Of a stretch of DNA of 29,642 nucleotides, positions 1,695 through 13,315 are shown piece by piece. The position numbers were made by a program, and so were the translations under genes. Position 1 is the stretch's first letter. Each line of letters opens with the position of its first letter. Under the pieces are notes generated by a model. The model had not been told where the DNA came from. It saw only the letters and a list, made by a program, of their open reading frames with translations, and did not search any database. The stretch covers positions 1 to 29,642 of the forward strand of contig JBHIAE010000034.1 in the NCBI GenBank assembly GCA_046758445.1, given 5' to 3'. This stretch comes from Candidatus Thorarchaeota archaeon. Its GTDB lineage: Archaea > Asgardarchaeota > Thorarchaeia > Thorarchaeales > Thorarchaeaceae.

Positions 1695-3131
1695 CTATGT
1701 TATTCCGCGCTGGTCCCCTCGAATTCGGCGTCGTAGAGTTAATCTGACTTCGTCGAGTTTGCTTCGTGCTCTACTTCTCTTAGGCCAGAAGTTCTTGATT
1801 TCCTCAAAGCCATGAACATCCCAATAGAGGGGACAGGCTCCTGTGCAATACTCGAAGTACTTGCATGGCCTGCAACCTTCAGGTGCAAAGTCCTTTGCTC
1901 GCCAGAACCTTGCTGCTCTGCTGTACCATACCTTCTCAAACCCATCTTCCAAGAGATTCCCTACAGGCACGCTGAAGCTAGAACAGGGCAAGACTCCTCC
2001 CTCTGCATCCACAGACAACAGACCGTCACAGCAGGCACACGACTTTGCACCGAGACCATGAGCAATGGGGTTGAACAGACAGACGGGCGTCGGAGCATAC
2101 CACACAAACTGGATTCCCTTCCTGTTGGCCCTCTTCTTGACGCGCTTCACAACATCACCTATCTCTGAGTAAGTGATCTGAAGCTCATCCCGAAGCTTCG
2201 CAGCAGTACCTGTGTATATCACCATGTTCATACTGAAGTAGCTGAGCTGAAGCTGGTCAGCAAGGAAGTCGACAAGTTCTTCCATGTGTTCTCTGTTCGG
2301 TTGGCAGATAGTGGTGTTGCAATGAGTGTAGATGTCAGTGTCCCTTAGATTCATGATGCCCTGGACTGTCTGATCAAATGCACCCGGGATGCCGACCATG
2401 AAGTCATGGACCTCAGGAGTAGGGCCTTCAATCGATACCTGAGCACTGTTTAGCCCTGCATCCACGAGTTCTTGGACATACTCTCTCTCAGCACATCTTC
2501 GGCCATTTGTAATGAGATTCACTCGAAGACCTCTCTTCCGAGCATACGCAATCAGGTCAAACAGGTCCTTGCGGAGAGTCGGTTCGCCTCCAGTGAACGA
2601 TAAGCTCGGAACATGAGCATCGTCATCAATGATGTCGATGACTCGCTTGACCTCTTCAGTTGTCATTTCGCCAGATTCACGATAAGGTGCATAGGCATAG
2701 CAAAATCGGCATTGGTTGTTACAACGATATGAAATCGCAATCTCACTTAGCACAGGATACTTGATCTCCCCTGTACCGAACGGGACGATATTCGCTGTCT
2801 TATAGGAGTAGACATTCAGATTGCCCATTGTCATGTTCCGAAGGTCGTCGACGAACGCGGCGAGATCATTCACTACAACCTGTTCAGTGGCACCGAAGTC
2901 TTCCACAAAGTGTCCTACCACATCTGTTGGAGAGGAACCATCTAGAAGCATTGTGAGCATTATGACTCCAGTCTCATTGAGATGCATGACTTTGTTTGGA
3001 CGGAGAATGAGCAGGTTATCTTCGGGTCGAACGAAGAAGAACTCCTTCACATCCTCGATGAAGGTGCCTACCCAACTCAGTTCCTCAATACTGTAGTCAT
3101 AGTGTGGATGTGGCATCGTTCTTGTTTTCAT
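1695..3131 (-). CDS. Radical SAM/SPASM peptide or protein maturase with N-terminal PqqD-like RiPP recognition element (RRE)
   Basis: N-terminal LNETG...helix-helix-helix PqqD pattern. CNNQCRFC (CxxxCxxC), FTGGEPTLR, ITNG and QVSIEG. SPASM cysteines CACC..PC..GNL..CRPC...CTGACP. The start could alternatively be ATG 3116. Confidence 0.9.
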   Translation of the reverse strand: MKTRTMPHPHYDYSIEELSWVGTFIEDVKEFFFVRPEDNLLILRPNKVMHLNETGVIMLTMLLDGSSPTDVVGHFVEDFGATEQVVVNDLAAFVDDLRNMTMGNLNVYSYKTANIVPFGTGEIKYPVLSEIAISYRCNNQCRFCYAYAPYRESGEMTTEEVKRVIDIIDDDAHVPSLSFTGGEPTLRKDLFDLIAYARKRGLRVNLITNGRRCAEREYVQELVDAGLNSAQVSIEGPTPEVHDFMVGIPGAFDQTVQGIMNLRDTDIYTHCNTTICQPNREHMEELVDFLADQLQLSYFSMNMVIYTGTAAKLRDELQITYSEIGDVVKRVKKRANRKGIQFVWYAPTPVCLFNPIAHGLGAKSCACCDGLLSVDAEGGVLPCSSFSVPVGNLLEDGFEKVWYSRAARFWRAKDFAPEGCRPCKYFEYCTGACPLYWDVHGFEEIKNFWPKRSRARSKLDEVRLTLRRRIRGDQRGIT

Positions 3132-3242: not shown

Positions 3243-3638
3243 ATGAGTTCTAGCGAAATCACGCTGCCATATGGAACGATAAGCAAGAAGAAGCTAATCA
3301 TGCACTTCAGCGCGTTCGATATCGACCTTCCAGTAATTGCAGCCGGAATCAGGGAGCGAATGGATGTTCTGCGGGAACTCGACGTCGCCTTTGCGGGTTT
3401 TGGAACTGAGGTTCCAGAGGACATGACAGAACAAACTCCAGCCACAGTGAAGTGCTTCTTCGAGTACCTCGGAAAACAAGTTGACTCCTTTCTAGTACTG
3501 AAGAGAGTCTACCATCTCGTTTGGGGAGGGATGATTCAGGAGTTCCCAGATTTTGAGGAGTGGGCCGCTGCGAAGGCAGACCTGTCTTCCCTTACCATCG
3601 CCCAGGCGGATGTCATCCGAGCAAGAAGAGGAGAATAG
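3243..3638 (+). CDS. Hypothetical protein (131 aa), first gene of the cluster divergent from the radical SAM gene
   Basis: Clean ORF with GGAG RBS about 8 nt upstream and a plausible alpha/beta composition. No family recognised. Confidence 0.7.
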   Translation: MSSSEITLPYGTISKKKLIMHFSAFDIDLPVIAAGIRERMDVLRELDVAFAGFGTEVPEDMTEQTPATVKCFFEYLGKQVDSFLVLKRVYHLVWGGMIQEFPDFEEWAAAKADLSSLTIAQADVIRARRGE

Positions 3639-3678
3639 CATTAGGGATCAATATGAGAGAAGGATACGAAGTGTCACG

Positions 3679-5808
3679 GTGGGAATCCAACGCTTGAGAC
3701 GAGGACTGAAGCTTGCCGCCTTCATCGCAGTCGTCCTACTTGTTGCAGTGCCTGTAAGGGCCGACTTCACACCAAGTCAAGCTCCGGATGTGAACCTTGA
3801 CAGTATCTATGTTGATGTTGTTGTTTTGCCAAACGGACGCATCAATGTCACATACTGGATCACAATATCTGTATTGGATGGCTCTCTAGGAGGCTTTGAT
3901 CTTCTGGGAATCCAAGAGAGCACCATCTATGACTCTAACAGGGCATATGCAGAAGTTGGAGGGAATCAGTATAGTCTCATTGTAGGTACTCGCTCCAATG
4001 GTTATGCACTAGACTGGACTCCAAGGACTCAAACTGGAGAAACTGTCACTGTAGTATTTGGGTACTTCAGTACCAACCGTGTCATAGAGAGGACCCTGGA
4101 CCTCGGAGTCTTCCACTGGGCTCCAGTTCAGTGGAAGGTGCCTGTTGACTATGAGAGTGTTAGAGTAATCTACCCGATTGTGATGCAACCTTCTTGGATT
4201 ACCGGAGAGAGTGGGATAACACAAGAAGGTGCTGACTTCGCCGGCTACAACGTTTCAACTGATCAGGGTCTCTGGGACAATCAAGGAGGGCAATTCGCTT
4301 TCGACGAGGAGAACTTGCTCGCCTATCCAACATCTCCGTCGGCTACTCCCAGAAATTTCAGTGTGAGCCTTGCTCACAACAACCTAGATCCTTTCGATCA
4401 TTTCAGAGTCTTTCACTTCACAAATTGGAGCTTCTACGCTCCCTATCTGCTACCGGGATCTCTAGGATACAGCACTGAGGAGAACATCAATGTAGACGCG
4501 AACGTCGAGTTCAGCATAGACCTGAACGTGTTCAACTTCGGTGATGCGCCACTGGATGACGTCACAGCATCAATGTCCGTGCCTGAGAATCTCACATTGA
4601 CATCGGGTCAGGTCGTTACATATGTCGGGACACTTGATGGAGGGGAGAATTCGGCTTTGACCTTCAATTTCGTTCCAGACAACATCCCCGAGATTCTACC
4701 AGTCACATTCCAAGTAACAGCATCCAATCTCAATGCAAGCGAATGGATCACTTTCACAGTCAATGTATTCGTTCGAGAATTCATCCCTCCGCTGATACCG
4801 CCAAATGTGTTGATTCTTAGCTTCGCTGGAATCGCGGCCGTGGGCATTGTATACGTCGGCTATAGAAGAACAACCAGGCGATATGGAGCCAAGTGGAAAG
4901 CTGATGAAACCACATCCGTCTATCAAAGCCCTGAGATTTCAATCCAGACCTTCGGCACTCCCGGAACAGTGGCTGAGCTGGATCCCGTCGAGAGCGCATT
5001 CTTTGTCAACACAAGCCGAAAAGACATCGTATCTATGATTCTCATGTCATGTGTGCGAAAGGGAGCAGTCCGAGTCATCTCGGGGGACCCATTGCGTCTA
5101 TCAGTTACGGGACTGAAGTTTGAAGATCTGACTTACTATGAGGAGCTGTTTGTTGAATCAATTGACAACAATGAACTAGACCAAGACAAAATCGACGACA
5201 TGTTGGAGGAGCTCGCTCAAAGGGTACAAGACAAATCTTGGGATGCAGACTTTGAGGCTACCAAAACCAACCATGACGAGATGGTGAATGGTGCTTGGGA
5301 TGAACTCGAGAGCCACCCAAGTCTTGATGGTCGAGTCGACTACTACTTCAACAGACACTACCACGATACTTGGGCTTGGTACTGGTTGTTTATGCACCCC
5401 CGGCATCACTATCATGTTGGAAGAGCATTCACACCTCCCGGCGGGACTATAGCACCTCCAAGAATTCCAGATTGGTTTGGGCAGATGGCTGAGGCAACTG
5501 GTCATGCGATTGGCGAAGTGGGAAGAGTTGTCGGAGATGTTGCATCGACCACGGCACAGATCATGTCGAACGTGACGGATACGATTGGCAGTGTGCTCGA
5601 AGGAGTTGGAAACATCATTCGCGAACCGTTGAAACCTATCATCGAAGGGACCAGCCGTTGTGTGTCCCATGATGCTTGCCATTCAGCTTGTGTTTCACAT
5701 GATGCCTGCCACAGCGCTTGTCACAGCGCTTGTCATAGTGCGTGCGTATGCCATAGTGCTTGTCATGCTGCATGTCACTCAGCTTGTGTATCGGGTGGAT
5801 TCAGATAG
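3679..5808 (+). CDS. DUF2207-like single-pass membrane protein with Ig/CARDB-like domain and C-terminal Cys/His-rich (CHSA)n tail
   Basis: Start moved to GTG 3679 (or TTG 3694) to avoid overlap with the upstream ORF. Signal peptide RRGLKLAAFIAVVLLVAVPVRA. DUF2207-like VDVVVLPNGRINVTYWIT. Ig-like NFGDAPLDDVTASMSVP. TM helix near 4804-4863. Cytoplasmic LDPVESAF..LMSCVRKGAV..LTYYE. Tail CVSHDACHSAC...CVSGGFR. Confidence 0.8.
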   Translation: MGIQRLRRGLKLAAFIAVVLLVAVPVRADFTPSQAPDVNLDSIYVDVVVLPNGRINVTYWITISVLDGSLGGFDLLGIQESTIYDSNRAYAEVGGNQYSLIVGTRSNGYALDWTPRTQTGETVTVVFGYFSTNRVIERTLDLGVFHWAPVQWKVPVDYESVRVIYPIVMQPSWITGESGITQEGADFAGYNVSTDQGLWDNQGGQFAFDEENLLAYPTSPSATPRNFSVSLAHNNLDPFDHFRVFHFTNWSFYAPYLLPGSLGYSTEENINVDANVEFSIDLNVFNFGDAPLDDVTASMSVPENLTLTSGQVVTYVGTLDGGENSALTFNFVPDNIPEILPVTFQVTASNLNASEWITFTVNVFVREFIPPLIPPNVLILSFAGIAAVGIVYVGYRRTTRRYGAKWKADETTSVYQSPEISIQTFGTPGTVAELDPVESAFFVNTSRKDIVSMILMSCVRKGAVRVISGDPLRLSVTGLKFEDLTYYEELFVESIDNNELDQDKIDDMLEELAQRVQDKSWDADFEATKTNHDEMVNGAWDELESHPSLDGRVDYYFNRHYHDTWAWYWLFMHPRHHYHVGRAFTPPGGTIAPPRIPDWFGQMAEATGHAIGEVGRVVGDVASTTAQIMSNVTDTIGSVLEGVGNIIREPLKPIIEGTSRCVSHDACHSACVSHDACHSACHSACHSACVCHSACHAACHSACVSGGFR
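5659..5805 (+). repeat. Protein-level Cys/His repeat (CHSA / CVSHDA units)
   Basis: The 49 codons encode 11 Cys and 9 His. Synonymous codons differ between repeat units. Confidence 0.9.
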
Positions 5809-5874: not shown

Positions 5875-7104
5875 GTGATTGAAATGTCCGTGGAAGAGAG
5901 ATTCGTACGTTTCTGCGGTGAGCTTGGCAACTTCTGCGAGAGAGTCACCGGGACCAGCCTGATTGATGCCTATTTCGGTCCTGACGAGTTGGTTCCTTCT
6001 AGGCAACGGAAGGACTCAATGCCAGAGGCCTTGCTACGAGAGCTGGATGTAATTCGAGACCTCATATCAGATCAGATTAGTGAGAGAATCCGGCAGGATT
6101 TCATGCTGAGTGACATCAAGTCGCTCCGAACGACTCTGCTTTGGTTGTCCGGCCATGAGATACCCTATGTCGACCTTGTTGAAGGTCTCTTTCACGTAGA
6201 GCCCAGAGCATTCGCCGAGTCTGACGTTGAGGCAGCTCGACAGCGAGTGGAAGATGCTTTCTCAACTTTTCCGGGTGAAGACACTCAAGACCGTGTGACT
6301 AGGTTCCGAACAGTAGGAGAGATTATAGGGCCCCAGGCTAAAGAGTTCATAGAGGTTGAACTTCAGAGAGAGAGTGTCGAAATCGGCCGGATGTTCAAGA
6401 CCAAGATCTACGATGTCATTGGGGAGTCGGTGACAGACAACGGTATAAGCTATGAGGCCGTCAGAGGTAAGCCGTGGGGTGCATACAACTGGTACAAGGG
6501 CAACTATCGTTCCGTGAACCAGTTCAATATCGACCGTCCTATCAACAGGAACACGGTAAACGCCGCAGTCTATCATGAATATGAACACCATGTGTCCCTT
6601 CTTTGGAGGGAGAAGGCATACTTGGAGCGCGGTTGGACTGATCTCTCTGTTGTTCTACTCCACACTGGCCGCTCCATTATAGCTGAAGGGACCGCTGACA
6701 CGGCTGCTGACTTCCTAGGAGTTGGAAGAGGGACACGTGAGGGGACCGCGGTCAGAGCGATGACTGATCTCTTCCGAATACTCAGCATCAATGCAGCAAT
6801 GATGATGAATCAAGAAGAGGTGCCCTTTGACGAGGCAGTAGAATACGCCATCGAGCGCAGCTTCAGTCCACGTGAAAGTCTAGAGGGGGCTTTGGGTTTC
6901 ATGACTCCAAAGACGCCTAGCGGCAGCCCCAACTTCTTTTCTCCGTATGTTTTCGCGTATTTTATCGGCCGGAACGAATTCGTGTATCCCGCATTCGCCA
7001 AGGCTAAGGAAAGGAACATGCTGTCCAAGTTCTACAGAACAGCCTACCTCAATCCGTATGTAGGACATAGCGCGACCTGGCGTGACGCATTTGATTGGCT
7101 ATGA
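5875..7104 (+). CDS. HExxH zinc metallopeptidase-like protein (gluzincin / DUF885-like)
   Basis: YHEYEHH followed about 30 aa later by IAEGTA (third-ligand Glu). WGAYNWYKG and YVFAYFIG segments resemble DUF885-like proteins. The start could be ATG 5884. Confidence 0.65.
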   Translation: MIEMSVEERFVRFCGELGNFCERVTGTSLIDAYFGPDELVPSRQRKDSMPEALLRELDVIRDLISDQISERIRQDFMLSDIKSLRTTLLWLSGHEIPYVDLVEGLFHVEPRAFAESDVEAARQRVEDAFSTFPGEDTQDRVTRFRTVGEIIGPQAKEFIEVELQRESVEIGRMFKTKIYDVIGESVTDNGISYEAVRGKPWGAYNWYKGNYRSVNQFNIDRPINRNTVNAAVYHEYEHHVSLLWREKAYLERGWTDLSVVLLHTGRSIIAEGTADTAADFLGVGRGTREGTAVRAMTDLFRILSINAAMMMNQEEVPFDEAVEYAIERSFSPRESLEGALGFMTPKTPSGSPNFFSPYVFAYFIGRNEFVYPAFAKAKERNMLSKFYRTAYLNPYVGHSATWRDAFDWL

Positions 7105-9394: not shown

Positions 9395-10813
9395 ATGAGC
9401 GACGAAACCGGGACTCGGAACAGTCCAGACGTCAAGCCACTTCGTCAGCTGTTTCACTTCTCACACTTCACTCACTTCTATAGACTCTACGTACCTGCGT
9501 CAATCCTGATAGGCATAGTCTGCGGCCTGTTCATGGTCTGCTTCCAAGTCCTTATTGACGTGCTGACCAGCGGACTCCTCGGAATTCCAGTGTTCTTGGC
9601 TCCATTGATAGGAGGGGTCGTCTCGGGACTTCTGATCTACTTCGGTCATCGCGAGATAGAGGGGAGTGGAATATCGAAGGCAATAGAACTCACTCACGAC
9701 CCAGTTGAGCTTAAGTCTCAGACCGCCGTCAGCAAGATGATTGCGACTTCTTTGTCGATCGGGTCTGGCAACCCTGTTGGTCGTGAGGGTCCTGCTGTAC
9801 TCATAGGGGCGGCCATTGGCAACAACGTCGGCCGTCTCTTTGGATATGATGACGCGCCTCATCTGCGAGTCTTCATCATGATGGGGTCTGCAGCTTGCAC
9901 TGCTGGGATATACAAGGCTCCTCTTGGAGGTGCATTGTTCGCTTCAGAGGCTCCCTACAAGAGAGACGCGCGAATGGGCTACTTTGTCCCTTCCGTCTTG
10001 GCAGCAATAACCTCTTACATCGTCTTCGCAATCCTCCTTGGAATAGACTCTCTTCTCAGTCTGGATGTCAGATTTACGCTAACTCTTCAAGTTCTCCCCT
10101 TCGTCGTAGTACTTGGTGTTGCTGCTGGCGCGGTTGCGATATTCTTCTCGGTCTTCTTGATGTTCATGCGCAACGTGTTCAGGATTCGCCTTCCTGATTG
10201 GGCGGACCCGGTTGCGGGCTCCCTGCTTGGATGCGTGGTGATCTTCCTGGTTGGTCTATGGATGGTTCCGGACCTGAATGTGGCAGGTCTTGGCTATTCT
10301 GTGATTGAGAACATAGCCTTGGGCGGCACGACCGTGCCTATAGCGACCTTGCTTGTACTTCTCTTGGGCAAGCTCTTTGCATCTTCGTTTGTTGTTGCAG
10401 GTCGGGTGTCAGGCGGAGTCCTTGCTTCCTCAATCTTCGTGGGAGCAATGCTTGGCGCACTATGCGGTGAGGTCTTCTTTCCAGAGCATATCGCAGCTTT
10501 CATAGTCATGGGAATGGGCGCCGTACTGGCCGCTACCACGAATACGCCTGTAGCCACAACCATTCTTGTCCTTGAGATCAGTCACTCTTTTGAGCTCCTG
10601 ATACCGCTGGCTATTTGCATCTCAGTTTCATACTTAGTCGGAGGAGGAACGTCTCTGTATGAGGGTCAGAAGGTGACTAGAGACGATGAAGACCCCGGTT
10701 ACTTTGCTCGTGTCAATATCATCCCCGAGGGAGAAGACCTTATCTCAGCTTTTGCAGATGCCAACCCGGTAGACAGCGAAGAAGAGACCTCGGATGATGG
10801 AGGCTCTGTGTAG
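9395..10813 (+). CDS. CLC family chloride channel / H+-Cl- antiporter (no CBS domain)
   Basis: GSGI, GREGP (gating Glu), APLGGALFASE (proton Glu), SGGVLA and SLY motifs, with multiple TMs. Confidence 0.92.
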   Translation: MSDETGTRNSPDVKPLRQLFHFSHFTHFYRLYVPASILIGIVCGLFMVCFQVLIDVLTSGLLGIPVFLAPLIGGVVSGLLIYFGHREIEGSGISKAIELTHDPVELKSQTAVSKMIATSLSIGSGNPVGREGPAVLIGAAIGNNVGRLFGYDDAPHLRVFIMMGSAACTAGIYKAPLGGALFASEAPYKRDARMGYFVPSVLAAITSYIVFAILLGIDSLLSLDVRFTLTLQVLPFVVVLGVAAGAVAIFFSVFLMFMRNVFRIRLPDWADPVAGSLLGCVVIFLVGLWMVPDLNVAGLGYSVIENIALGGTTVPIATLLVLLLGKLFASSFVVAGRVSGGVLASSIFVGAMLGALCGEVFFPEHIAAFIVMGMGAVLAATTNTPVATTILVLEISHSFELLIPLAICISVSYLVGGGTSLYEGQKVTRDDEDPGYFARVNIIPEGEDLISAFADANPVDSEEETSDDGGSV

Positions 10814-10888: not shown

Positions 10889-13315
10889 TTGAAAAGACGG
10901 TACGTTGGCACGCTACTTATTCTGGTTCTTGCACTACCGGTCATGTTCTATGTACCGAATGTCCTCGTTGGGATCTTTGGGTTTGCCAAATCCAAAGATT
11001 CAACCATCGACTTTCATTCACTTAGTAGTGAATATGACGGCGAGATACCAGTTGTTGTAAGTTTCACTAACGCACTCACAGAAGAATGGATATCAGAGAT
11101 ACAATCGCATGATGTGAGGTTCAGCTTGGGCTCTCGAGAAGCGAGCCGAGTTGGTGATTACTATATTCTTCGAGGGACTCCAGACGGGCTCTCATCTCTC
11201 CAAGAGATGGGCCTGTTTGATAGTCTGGCTCTGGGCGCACCTTCAGGGAACATGCATCCTTCGCGGGATGTTTCCATTCCAGAGATAGCCGCCGATGACG
11301 TCTGGAGGACTATTGACGGACTTGGGAGGAACATAACCGGAGAGGGTATCCTAATCGCAGATCTCGACTCTGGAGTTGACTGGCTTCATCCAGATCTGTG
11401 GTTTGCCGATGGACCGACCTATAACTGGTATGAGTCGGGACTCCCGGATGCAGTCTTCACGAACGGTACTGATTATGTCGATTTGAACGGCGATTTGATT
11501 AAGCAACCTGACGAGAGTCTGTTTCATATCGACCTTGACAATGACGGTGTCATTGATACACGCACGGAATGGCTTTGGGCAGACAACATTTCCCAAGATG
11601 GAGTGATACAGATAGGCGAGCCCTTCTTTATTGTCAATGATACTGATGATGATGGAGCCATCGGTTTCACTGAAACACTTGTGATGCTGAGTACCCCCAA
11701 GACCAGGTATATCGTCGAAGGAAACGGGACCCTAGGAGGGATTCAGGTCTGGGATCGAAGTGCGAATCTCACCTCAACAACACACAAGGACATAGACGGT
11801 CACGGCACCACTGTTTCAGGTATTCTCCTAGGTGGTCATCTGGGCTTCAACAGAACGTACGTCGGCGTAGCTCCAAGTGCAGAATTGATGATGGTCAAAG
11901 TTCTTAGTGACAACTGGGGCAACTATGATTGGGTGGACATGCTCGATGCGCTGGGTTGGGCCTATAATCACGGAGCAGATGTAATCCTAACGGAGATTGG
12001 TTCATGGACATACCATTATCTGGACGGTAGTTCCGCAGAAGCCCTGCTTATTGATGCCATTGTATCGAATGGGGTTCCAGTGATTTCTCCAAGTGGCAAT
12101 CTTGGTGGAAAGCATAAGCATGCTCTCACAAACACCCTTCCAGGCATTGCAACCCAAATCGACTTCACGATTCCCCAACCTTTCACCCCAGGCGAGGGTG
12201 AATACATCGACTCAGAGATACGGGAAGTGTATATCACAGTGCTGTCGCGGAACACAACTGACTTTGCTGCCAGCAACTTCAGTCTGTTTATGGACATGTC
12301 AGCCTTTGTCCTACCGCCAGTCACCATCTATCTGCATCCTGGTGCAGGCTACCAGAACTTCTTCAAAGAACCAGCATCTCCAGCGCAGTTCGACGTACTT
12401 TCATTCATCTCGGTTTCTAGTCGCGGCACCAAGATGCTTGGTATAAAGATAAACGGCACACTGCCGGTCACACTTGCCCCTCCGTGGCATCAGCTCAACA
12501 TCACTACACCTCAGGAAACGACTTTCCACAGCTACATAGCGGATGACCAAAGCTCCTGGACTGGTGGATGTATCTGGAAGAGCCATGTTTCAGATGACTT
12601 TGAGATAACTTGGCCGTCTACTGCCGACAGCGCATTGAGCGTTGCTAGCTACAGAACCAGAAATCTAGTCCAATCTGGGTGGAATCCACCTGATGTGGTC
12701 GGCGACATTGCTGGCTTCTCATCTCGTGGGCCACGCATTGATGGAGTGGCCAAACAGGGAGTGGCAGCCCCGGGAGGCTTCGACATCATCTCGGACTATA
12801 CGAACGAATCAACATGGGAACCTTGGTTCAACGGTTTCGGAGCATTGTCATTCGGACCGCGCTTTGGAAGCTACCGACTCTTCAGTGGAACTAGCGCTTC
12901 GGGCCCACATGTCGCTGGATGTGCCGCGCTAATGCTTCAAGCTAAACCGACAATTGGGGTGACGGCGGCAGCCCTAATCCAGTCAACAGCTAGGACTGAC
13001 GGATTCACTGGACCGGTACAGAATTCTGTGTGGGGTTGGGGCAAGCTGAATGTTTCAGCCGCGGTAGAAGCAGCTATCAGTACCACCACAACGACGACTA
13101 CAACCACTACAACAACGACAACAACAACTACTACAACAACCACAGGCACGACCACTACAACTACCACAGGGACGACCACAACCACAACAACGACTGCTAC
13201 CACGACTCCAACAATACCGGAGTTCCCGAACTACCTTGTTCTTGCTGCTATGCTTGGAGCAATCCTAGTATTGATTGTCATATCGGTAGCGGTTTCACGA
13301 AGACGGGGCAAATAG
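10889..13315 (+). CDS. Cell-surface subtilisin-like (S8) serine protease with Thr-rich linker and C-terminal membrane anchor
   Basis: Catalytic motifs DLDSG, GHGTTVSG and SGTSASGPHVAG, plus FSSRGP and WGWGKLN. N-terminal signal, poly-Thr linker, and IPEFP-TM-RRRGK. TTG start after GGAGG. Confidence 0.93.
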   Translation: MKRRYVGTLLILVLALPVMFYVPNVLVGIFGFAKSKDSTIDFHSLSSEYDGEIPVVVSFTNALTEEWISEIQSHDVRFSLGSREASRVGDYYILRGTPDGLSSLQEMGLFDSLALGAPSGNMHPSRDVSIPEIAADDVWRTIDGLGRNITGEGILIADLDSGVDWLHPDLWFADGPTYNWYESGLPDAVFTNGTDYVDLNGDLIKQPDESLFHIDLDNDGVIDTRTEWLWADNISQDGVIQIGEPFFIVNDTDDDGAIGFTETLVMLSTPKTRYIVEGNGTLGGIQVWDRSANLTSTTHKDIDGHGTTVSGILLGGHLGFNRTYVGVAPSAELMMVKVLSDNWGNYDWVDMLDALGWAYNHGADVILTEIGSWTYHYLDGSSAEALLIDAIVSNGVPVISPSGNLGGKHKHALTNTLPGIATQIDFTIPQPFTPGEGEYIDSEIREVYITVLSRNTTDFAASNFSLFMDMSAFVLPPVTIYLHPGAGYQNFFKEPASPAQFDVLSFISVSSRGTKMLGIKINGTLPVTLAPPWHQLNITTPQETTFHSYIADDQSSWTGGCIWKSHVSDDFEITWPSTADSALSVASYRTRNLVQSGWNPPDVVGDIAGFSSRGPRIDGVAKQGVAAPGGFDIISDYTNESTWEPWFNGFGALSFGPRFGSYRLFSGTSASGPHVAGCAALMLQAKPTIGVTAAALIQSTARTDGFTGPVQNSVWGWGKLNVSAAVEAAISTTTTTTTTTTTTTTTTTTTTTGTTTTTTTGTTTTTTTTATTTPTIPEFPNYLVLAAMLGAILVLIVISVAVSRRRGK
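13082..13213 (+). repeat. Thr-rich low-complexity coding repeat (ACN codons)
   Basis: A run of about 40 Thr codons with mixed third positions, forming the linker of the S8 protease. Confidence 0.9.

Follow-up and report, generated by a model that had tools for sequence, protein, structure and literature searches.

Enzymes that join a radical S-adenosylmethionine (SAM) core and a SPASM domain to a PqqD-like recognition element for peptides that are synthesized on ribosomes and modified after translation (RiPPs; the element is abbreviated RRE) have been examined almost exclusively in the production of small secreted peptides. We describe here a 29,642-nucleotide stretch of a Candidatus Thorarchaeota genome (contig JBHIAE010000034.1; hereafter, the window) in which such an enzyme is encoded beside a large membrane protein that ends in a repetitive Cys/His tail. 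The closest named parallel is the CXXX-repeat system (target TIGR04117, maturase TIGR04115; PF27846, ‘tSAM_targ_Cxxx_rpt’), which shares a Cys at every fourth residue and an adjoining radical SAM gene with the locus studied here, and some bacterial members of the tail family bear a weak precomputed PF27846 label. The TIGR04117 profile spans 98 positions, which suggests small target proteins, whereas the target here is the tail of a membrane protein of 500–950 amino acids. Searched at E values up to 10, the window protein’s final 101 residues did not match TIGR04117 (cut-off 50 bits); its bacterial relatives scored 13.1–18.7 bits, below that cut-off, and for TIGR04115, with its cut-off of 350 bits, the window enzyme reached 19.7. 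Our literature searches found no paper on the tail and its enzyme, nor an experimental paper on the CXXX-repeat system.

The ranthipeptide systems NxxcB/NxxcA and PapB/freyrasin offer a second parallel. They too combine an RRE-radical SAM-SPASM enzyme with a repeated motif of four to five residues in which Cys stands at a fixed distance from its acceptor, and the N-x-x-C of NxxcB parallels the H-x-A-C unit described below (PMC9389541). Their substrates, however, are short secreted peptides and their acceptors are Asn or Asp rather than His or Ala, and the window enzyme scored 82 bits against a PapB family cut-off of 340 bits. Scores were likewise below the cut-offs for the His-Xaa-Ser system (HxsA with HxsB/HxsC; 107.3 bits against 267.9 for HxsC) and for the ACGX-repeat system (TIGR04340; 91.9 bits, and 108.9 bits for an Asgard relative, against 400). 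SPASM enzymes that modify Cys in proteins which then keep the modification are also known, namely QhpD, acting on QhpC, and the anaerobic sulfatase maturase; their substrates and motifs are unrelated to the tail, and the window enzyme fell under the cut-off of every curated NCBIfam model scanned. The enzyme class and the theme of a Cys-rich repeat substrate are already known; new here are the type of substrate, the repeat unit, an internal recognition strand and a range that takes in both Asgard archaea and bacteria. On balance we favour the reading that the tail is a cytoplasmic, membrane-tethered substrate modified by the adjoining RRE-radical SAM-SPASM enzyme, with serial thioethers as the likeliest of the possible products.

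The tail, our proposed modification site, occupies positions 5659..5808 of the forward strand, from its first Cys codon at 5659 to a TAG stop at 5806–5808. In translation it holds nine H-x-A-C units, three C-V interruptions and a closing C-V-S-G-G-F-R, with 11 Cys and 9 His within 49 residues. An initial annotation of this DNA had drawn attention to the tail; its peptide matches the end of the open reading frame (ORF) exactly, and the four C-H-S-A codon sets that it quoted are all present in the tail DNA. The longest ORF that includes the tail runs from a TTG at 3553 to 5808 on the forward strand. In this ORF the first 45 or so residues have no counterpart in the alignments with homologs. The likely start is the ATG at 3610 (3610..5808, forward strand; 732 residues), with a GTG at 3679 as the alternative, giving a protein of about 710–730 residues; residue numbers below are counted from the ATG. 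Matches to a degenerate DNA pattern encoding (C-H-x-A)3-C number two in the window, where 100 shuffles gave an expectation of 0.00. Tandem Repeats Finder detected only short DNA repeats in the tail, a 12-nucleotide unit in 2.2 copies and a 30-nucleotide unit in 2.1 copies at 79%.

The putative tail maturase is encoded at 1695..3131 on the reverse strand, divergently to the tail gene. Pfam recognizes PqqD at residues 42–99 (34.2 bits, cut-off 23.4), Radical_SAM at 133–290 (E 1e-29) and SPASM at 368–424 (30.4 bits, cut-off 21.5). Across 45 homologs the CxxxCxxC cluster (Cys136, Cys140 and Cys143) is invariant, as are the SPASM residues Cys364, 382, 419, 422, 428 and 432, with a seventh, Cys350, nearly so; as expected, this set would fit two auxiliary clusters. 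The enzyme carries the CxxxCxxC motif, seven-Cys SPASM domain and N-terminal PqqD-like RRE of its class, and departs from it in substrate, which would be a membrane protein of 500–950 amino acids instead of a short cleaved precursor. Among proteins of solved structure, those closest to it in sequence are in part enzymes that modify peptides (SkfB, PqqE, CteB and SuiB) and in part enzymes that do not act on peptides, among them the tetraether lipid synthase and cytosylglucuronate decarboxylase.

We carried out the proteome-wide pattern search proposed in the initial annotation on DNA, covering 185,579 species genomes, with three consecutive units as the seed. It yielded at least 120 stretches. 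In 92 of the 120 listed, the stretch is a genuine C-terminal tail of a homologous protein, from Thorarchaeota or one of roughly 20 bacterial phyla; the remaining ~28 of the 120 listed matches were excluded as having no true C-terminal tail, and the false matches inspected were other frames of GC-rich DNA with no enzyme nearby. Bacterial phylum names, taken from record titles, include Chloroflexota, Spirochaetota, Planctomycetota, Myxococcota, Bacillota, Omnitrophota, Acidobacteriota, Pseudomonadota and Gemmatimonadota among the matches listed, which also contain a cultured strain, Desulfobulbus alkaliphilus DSM 24258. The tail statistics that follow are for these 92 listed tails and describe residues beyond the seed. 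A His is followed by x-x-C in 770 of 772 cases, with Ala directly before that Cys in 762 of the 770, whereas Cys is followed by His in only 717 of 912. We conclude from the sequences that the invariant repeat unit is H-x-A-C; the four-residue Cys/His repeat first proposed stands, but its C-H-S-A phase does not. The residue after His is Ser 629 times and Asp 100 times, the rest being small or polar (S, D, N, G and T were seen), and 739 of the 912 Cys have another Cys at i+4. Tails hold 6–12 His (mostly 8–9) and 6–13 Cys, and end in C-V-S-G-G-x-[H/R] or in a short variant that closes in Phe.

A protein database search with the tail alone returned 39 proteins, mostly of 500–850 amino acids and including bacterial ones, and a profile built from 54 members found 1268 clusters at E≤0.001, 247 of them at E≤1e-30, among 1.84 billion representatives; by this measure the family of tail proteins is real but small. 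Among proteins of 28–90 amino acids, no stand-alone short peptide with the tail was found except one fragment on a 578-nucleotide contig. Relatives in other Asgard families are only 26–33% identical in the body and have the same tail pattern in differing numbers of units. We also observed a sister type of tail on homologous membrane proteins of other Asgard genomes (loci L036–L040; proteins P0139, P0150, P0153, P0159, P0167, P0176 and P0178), in which a conserved (C-A)n sequence in two blocks ends in G-G-G-R and has no His. In L038–L040, three of the fetched loci, these tails adjoin a radical SAM/SPASM enzyme of 33% identity that forms its own clade. One Asgard relative (L035:6140-7462, forward strand) joins both types in a hybrid tail that begins with H-x-A-C units and continues as a (C-A)n block; part of this tail reads N/X.

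The tail gene and the enzyme gene travel together. The order of enzyme and, divergently, a small gene (orf131) then the tail gene is kept in 28 of 28 Thorarchaeota loci with enough flanking sequence; in five other Asgard loci with related tails the enzyme, 41–44% identical, adjoins each, and in three of three bacterial contigs the tail gene, the enzyme and a third gene lie in a row. Across the 92 listed tails the enzyme adjoins the tail gene in 79 loci (79 of ~83 with enough flank), directly downstream on the same strand in 76, with a median gap of 36 nucleotides, and divergently in three from Thorarchaeota. Of the remaining 13, the relevant flank is too short in nine, and four have no enzyme although their flank is long enough. 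In one Myxococcales metagenome-assembled genome (MAG; L060, L071) two paralogous tail proteins occur with the enzyme beside only one of them, so that a single enzyme may serve both. Among the 85 Thorarchaeota genomes of the window’s own family, 57 have both genes, 4 the tail only, 5 the enzyme only and 19 neither; the last group includes genomes that are 91–98% complete, and the mismatches inspected were contig-end fragments or a scaffold gap. One genome, G369, was rejected as a tail-only case because a scaffold gap of 100 N cuts its locus. Within Thorarchaeota, then, the two genes are gained and lost together, and the pattern of coupling holds across two domains of life.

Enzyme phylogeny follows the tail as well. 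On a quick maximum-likelihood tree the enzyme clades required 5 changes of tail-type label against a mean of 14.5 after shuffling, with none of 200 shuffles as low. The relatives with (C-A)n tails have their own enzyme clade, at 33% identity. Enzymes from Thorarchaeota fall together with those of Chloroflexota and Myxococcota loci in which the tail has the same interrupted pattern (SH-aLRT 86). The enzymes of other Asgard loci (L031/L032, L033 and L034) sit elsewhere in the tree. This scattering of Asgard lineages suggests several transfers between Bacteria and Asgard archaea, whose direction is not readable from a quick, midpoint-rooted tree.

Thorarchaeota orthologs in the protein database all end before the tail, and we therefore read tails from genome DNA in a six-frame search over 400 genomes of the phylum, finding an ortholog of the tail gene in 61 of the 85 genomes of the window’s family. 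In 29 fetched orthologs the protein body is 55–79% identical, and the tail is unchanged nearly letter for letter: over the last 50 codons, 46 of 50 residues are invariant across 30 species (the 29 orthologs and the window), and 2–6 codons are used at every tail position. Synonymous sites of the tail are saturated (mean proportion of synonymous differences, pS, 0.90) at a nonsynonymous proportion, pN, of 0.043, compared with pS 0.755 and pN 0.18 in the 50 codons upstream. These values amount to strong purifying selection on the exact peptide, with a fixed number of units in Thorarchaeota. They bear out the early suggestion that selection acts on the peptide and that conservation is at the level of protein and not DNA, which holds both between repeat units and across species. 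The Cys/His spacing, whose loss in orthologs would have counted against that suggestion, is kept in orthologs and in distant relatives, and a comparison of repeat numbers, also proposed at the outset, gave a constant number within Thorarchaeota and 6–12 His across the whole family. Ser codons of the tail switch between AGY and TCN at the same sites between species, at several positions within 5659–5805 and its orthologous sequences; such a switch needs two base changes by way of a non-Ser codon, and it points to either very strong selection for Ser or exchange between repeat units.

The single-pass membrane protein that bears the tail comprises, in order, a signal/anchor helix, a beta-rich ectodomain, a transmembrane helix, a cytoplasmic domain and the tail. 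An AlphaFold2 model with a mean pLDDT of 80 places the ectodomain at residues 60–390 (pLDDT >90), the transmembrane helix at 398–422 and a confident cytoplasmic domain at 446–610; the tail, at pLDDT 33–46, has no confident fold and is drawn helical. Since basic residues follow the transmembrane helix, we infer that the C-terminus is cytoplasmic and within reach of the radical SAM enzyme. No family was assigned to the tail protein, orf131 or the downstream orf409 in Pfam and NCBIfam scans. The initial annotation had taken the host for a DUF2207-type protein, and of this a distant likeness survives: 15 of 54 relatives match PF09972 (DUF2207) weakly, with a best E value of 3.4e-6, but the window protein itself falls below threshold and gave no match at E values up to 1. 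With DUF2207 proteins (PF09972, PF20990) it shares the signal/anchor helix, the beta-rich ectodomain, the membrane helix and a low-complexity C-terminal tail, and its atlas neighbours partly carry DUF2207, which we take as a lead only. Classical DUF2207 tails are rich in Gly and Ser and are not known to have any connection with radical SAM enzymes. One published study finds DUF2207 beside an ovothiol gene and says that no link exists (PMC12631010).

The best Foldseek matches to the whole model were to Ost1/ribophorin I of the eukaryotic oligosaccharyltransferase (E 2e-10 to 1e-6, at TM-scores of only 0.2–0.3), with which it shares a layout of luminal beta domain, one transmembrane helix and cytosolic helical domain. 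The lead is weak, and what gives it interest is that the protein comes from an Asgard archaeon.

To examine how enzyme and tail protein might meet, we modelled a complex of the enzyme with residues 436–732 of the tail protein, using a separate alignment for each. The runs scored 0.85, 0.85 and 0.84, while the best of three controls scored 0.00; the score mark applied is reached by 58 of 80 solved complexes and by 2 of 110 mismatched pairs. Runs shared at least 24% of their contacts, with a partner pLDDT of at least 65. The confident interface lies between enzyme residues 40–120, the RRE, and tail-protein residues 436–449 (4915..4956, forward strand), directly after the membrane helix. This juxtamembrane strand has the motif [WY]-x-x-P-[KE]-[IL]-x-[VIL]-x-[TS]-[FY], and its Pro441, at the centre of the predicted interface, is invariant in 54 of 54 aligned family members. 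The model supports docking of the RRE on residues 436–449, which we regard as the predicted recognition strand.

In the mechanism that we propose, the host protein would insert into the membrane by one helix, exposing its beta-rich domain to the exterior and keeping about 300 residues in the cytoplasm. The PqqD-like RRE would dock on the conserved strand around Pro441, which would act in the manner of a RiPP leader, and the radical SAM/SPASM core would work along the C-terminal tail, some 250 residues beyond the docking strand. Within each H-x-A-C unit the Cys sulfur would probably be joined to a carbon of a nearby residue. The acceptor may be the His at i-3, by analogy with the N-x-x-C of NxxcB, or the Ala at i-1; with NxxcB the bond runs from Cys to the residue three positions upstream, and other residues can serve as acceptor (PMC9389541). 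Up to nine small rings would result, forming a ladder that is still attached to the protein. The parts of this proposal are not equally secure. That the tail is a substrate of the enzyme we consider very likely, and it is likely that the modified product stays attached, uncleaved. Cross-links of the thioether type, a bond suggested by analogy, are a tentative assignment for which the chances fall somewhat short of even.

Several observations weigh against this proposal. (C-A)n tails lack His, so His is no universal acceptor, and these sister tails suggest Ala as a possible acceptor in its place. Since Ala and His are equally conserved, and the position that follows His is variable, the acceptor is unreadable from the sequence. 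A tail of this Cys/His composition could equally well bind metal with no cross-link at all. The complex model does not place the tail confidently in the active site, and because RRE–leader complexes have been solved for other enzymes, its passing score may partly reflect likeness to these. Four listed loci have enough flank and an intact tail, yet no enzyme nearby. Finally, labels are shared among related genomes, and counts of co-occurrence therefore exaggerate independence and with it statistical support.

The initial annotation had offered two mechanisms, serial cross-linking and a metallothionein-like multi-metal site. On the second, the tail would be a multi-metal or Fe-S module, metallothionein-like or with His/Cys ligands, that carries no covalent modification while the enzyme acts elsewhere. 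Its composition, 23% Cys and 21% His, would suit such a role, and the i/i+4 spacing of Cys and i/i+3 spacing of His and Cys would align ligands on a helix, the form in which AlphaFold2 draws the tail at pLDDT 33–46. Metallothioneins are small soluble proteins with C-x-C or C-x-x-C clusters; the spacing in the tail is C-x3-C, and the tail is part of a membrane protein. A metal module would, however, leave unexplained both an RRE maturase beside the gene in ~95% of the listed loci with enough flank, in two domains of life, and enzyme clades that track tail type; nor would a metal site alone need an Ala as strictly kept as the ligands (762 of 770 among the matches listed). The tight coupling to an RRE-radical SAM-SPASM enzyme thus leads us to favour enzymatic cross-linking, and we judge a module that binds metal alone to be improbable. 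A metal role could nevertheless coexist with cross-linking, and metal binding may be the job of the modified product.

About equally improbable is that the 730-residue protein is an oversized RiPP precursor whose tail is cut off and released as a free polycyclic peptide. A leader-like strand followed by a C-terminal core does resemble the layout of a RiPP precursor, and the cut might be made by the product of orf409 (5875..7104, forward strand), which has an H-E-x-x-H motif and lies downstream in many Thorarchaeota loci. Yet unrelated genes beyond orf409 (DUF6159 and Usp) are equally syntenic in Thorarchaeota, and orf409 is absent from the bacterial cassettes, which have no peptidase and whose third genes belong to two unrelated non-peptidase families. 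For these reasons we do not count orf409 in the system; its link to the tail is doubtful and its position may reflect shared ancestry only. There is also no conserved cleavage motif before the tail, where the sequence is variable, and inspection of the annotated context of three bacterial contigs brought up no exporter gene. A leader would hardly need an ectodomain and a cytoplasmic domain that are both large and conserved. Last, although short DNA repeats are present inside the tail, slippage in low-complexity sequence or an assembly artefact without specific function can be set aside as vanishingly improbable, because a near-invariant peptide is set against saturated synonymous sites in 30 species and the same tail was assembled independently in dozens of MAGs, and recurs in distant phyla.

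Beyond the two-gene core, the locus contains orf131 (3243..3638, forward strand), just upstream of the tail gene, which encodes a small conserved cytoplasmic protein with no conserved Cys. It is 67–86% identical in Thorarchaeota, and its AlphaFold2 model (pLDDT 82) found no match among solved folds. Four bacterial loci (L067, L101, L106 and L164) have a homolog of 35–39% identity upstream of their tail gene, and given this shared position in Thorarchaeota and bacteria orf131 is probably an accessory part. In the bacterial loci L048–L167 the gene after the enzyme encodes either a protein of 300–350 amino acids (41 loci) or a coiled-coil protein of ~400 amino acids (11 loci), often with its own start codon overlapping the stop of the enzyme gene. 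The coiled-coil form goes with interrupted tails in its 11 loci, and the 300–350-residue form occurs in only one Asgard locus (L033). Hidden Markov models of both third-gene families gave no match in the window, and the examples scanned had no Pfam or NCBIfam match. A few kilobases downstream of the tail gene lie a ClC-type chloride channel (9395–10813, forward strand) and an S8 subtilisin-like protease of 808 amino acids (10889–13315, forward strand) with sub-threshold mycosin-type matches; nothing links either gene to the tail system.

Taken at its fullest, the locus may encode a new modification, in which an enzyme recruited to an internal leader-like strand makes about nine consecutive His-Cys or Ala-Cys cross-links in the tail of a DUF2207/ribophorin-I-like protein, leaving a rigid polycyclic rod that stays attached for good and might bind metal or be redox-active. 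Asgard archaea and many bacterial phyla would have this system in common, probably through gene transfer, and a sister form of it would act on (C-A)n tails. In this complete form we think the proposal possible but rather unlikely. The machinery known from small peptides here apparently has as its target the cytoplasmic C-terminus of a membrane protein that is large and conserved, and the two-gene core recurs in Asgard archaea and, judging by record titles, roughly 20 bacterial phyla; no curated family fits it. If the tail is cross-linked, it would represent a new class of substrate, possibly with a new type of bond, and would provide a first functional handle on DUF2207-like proteins.

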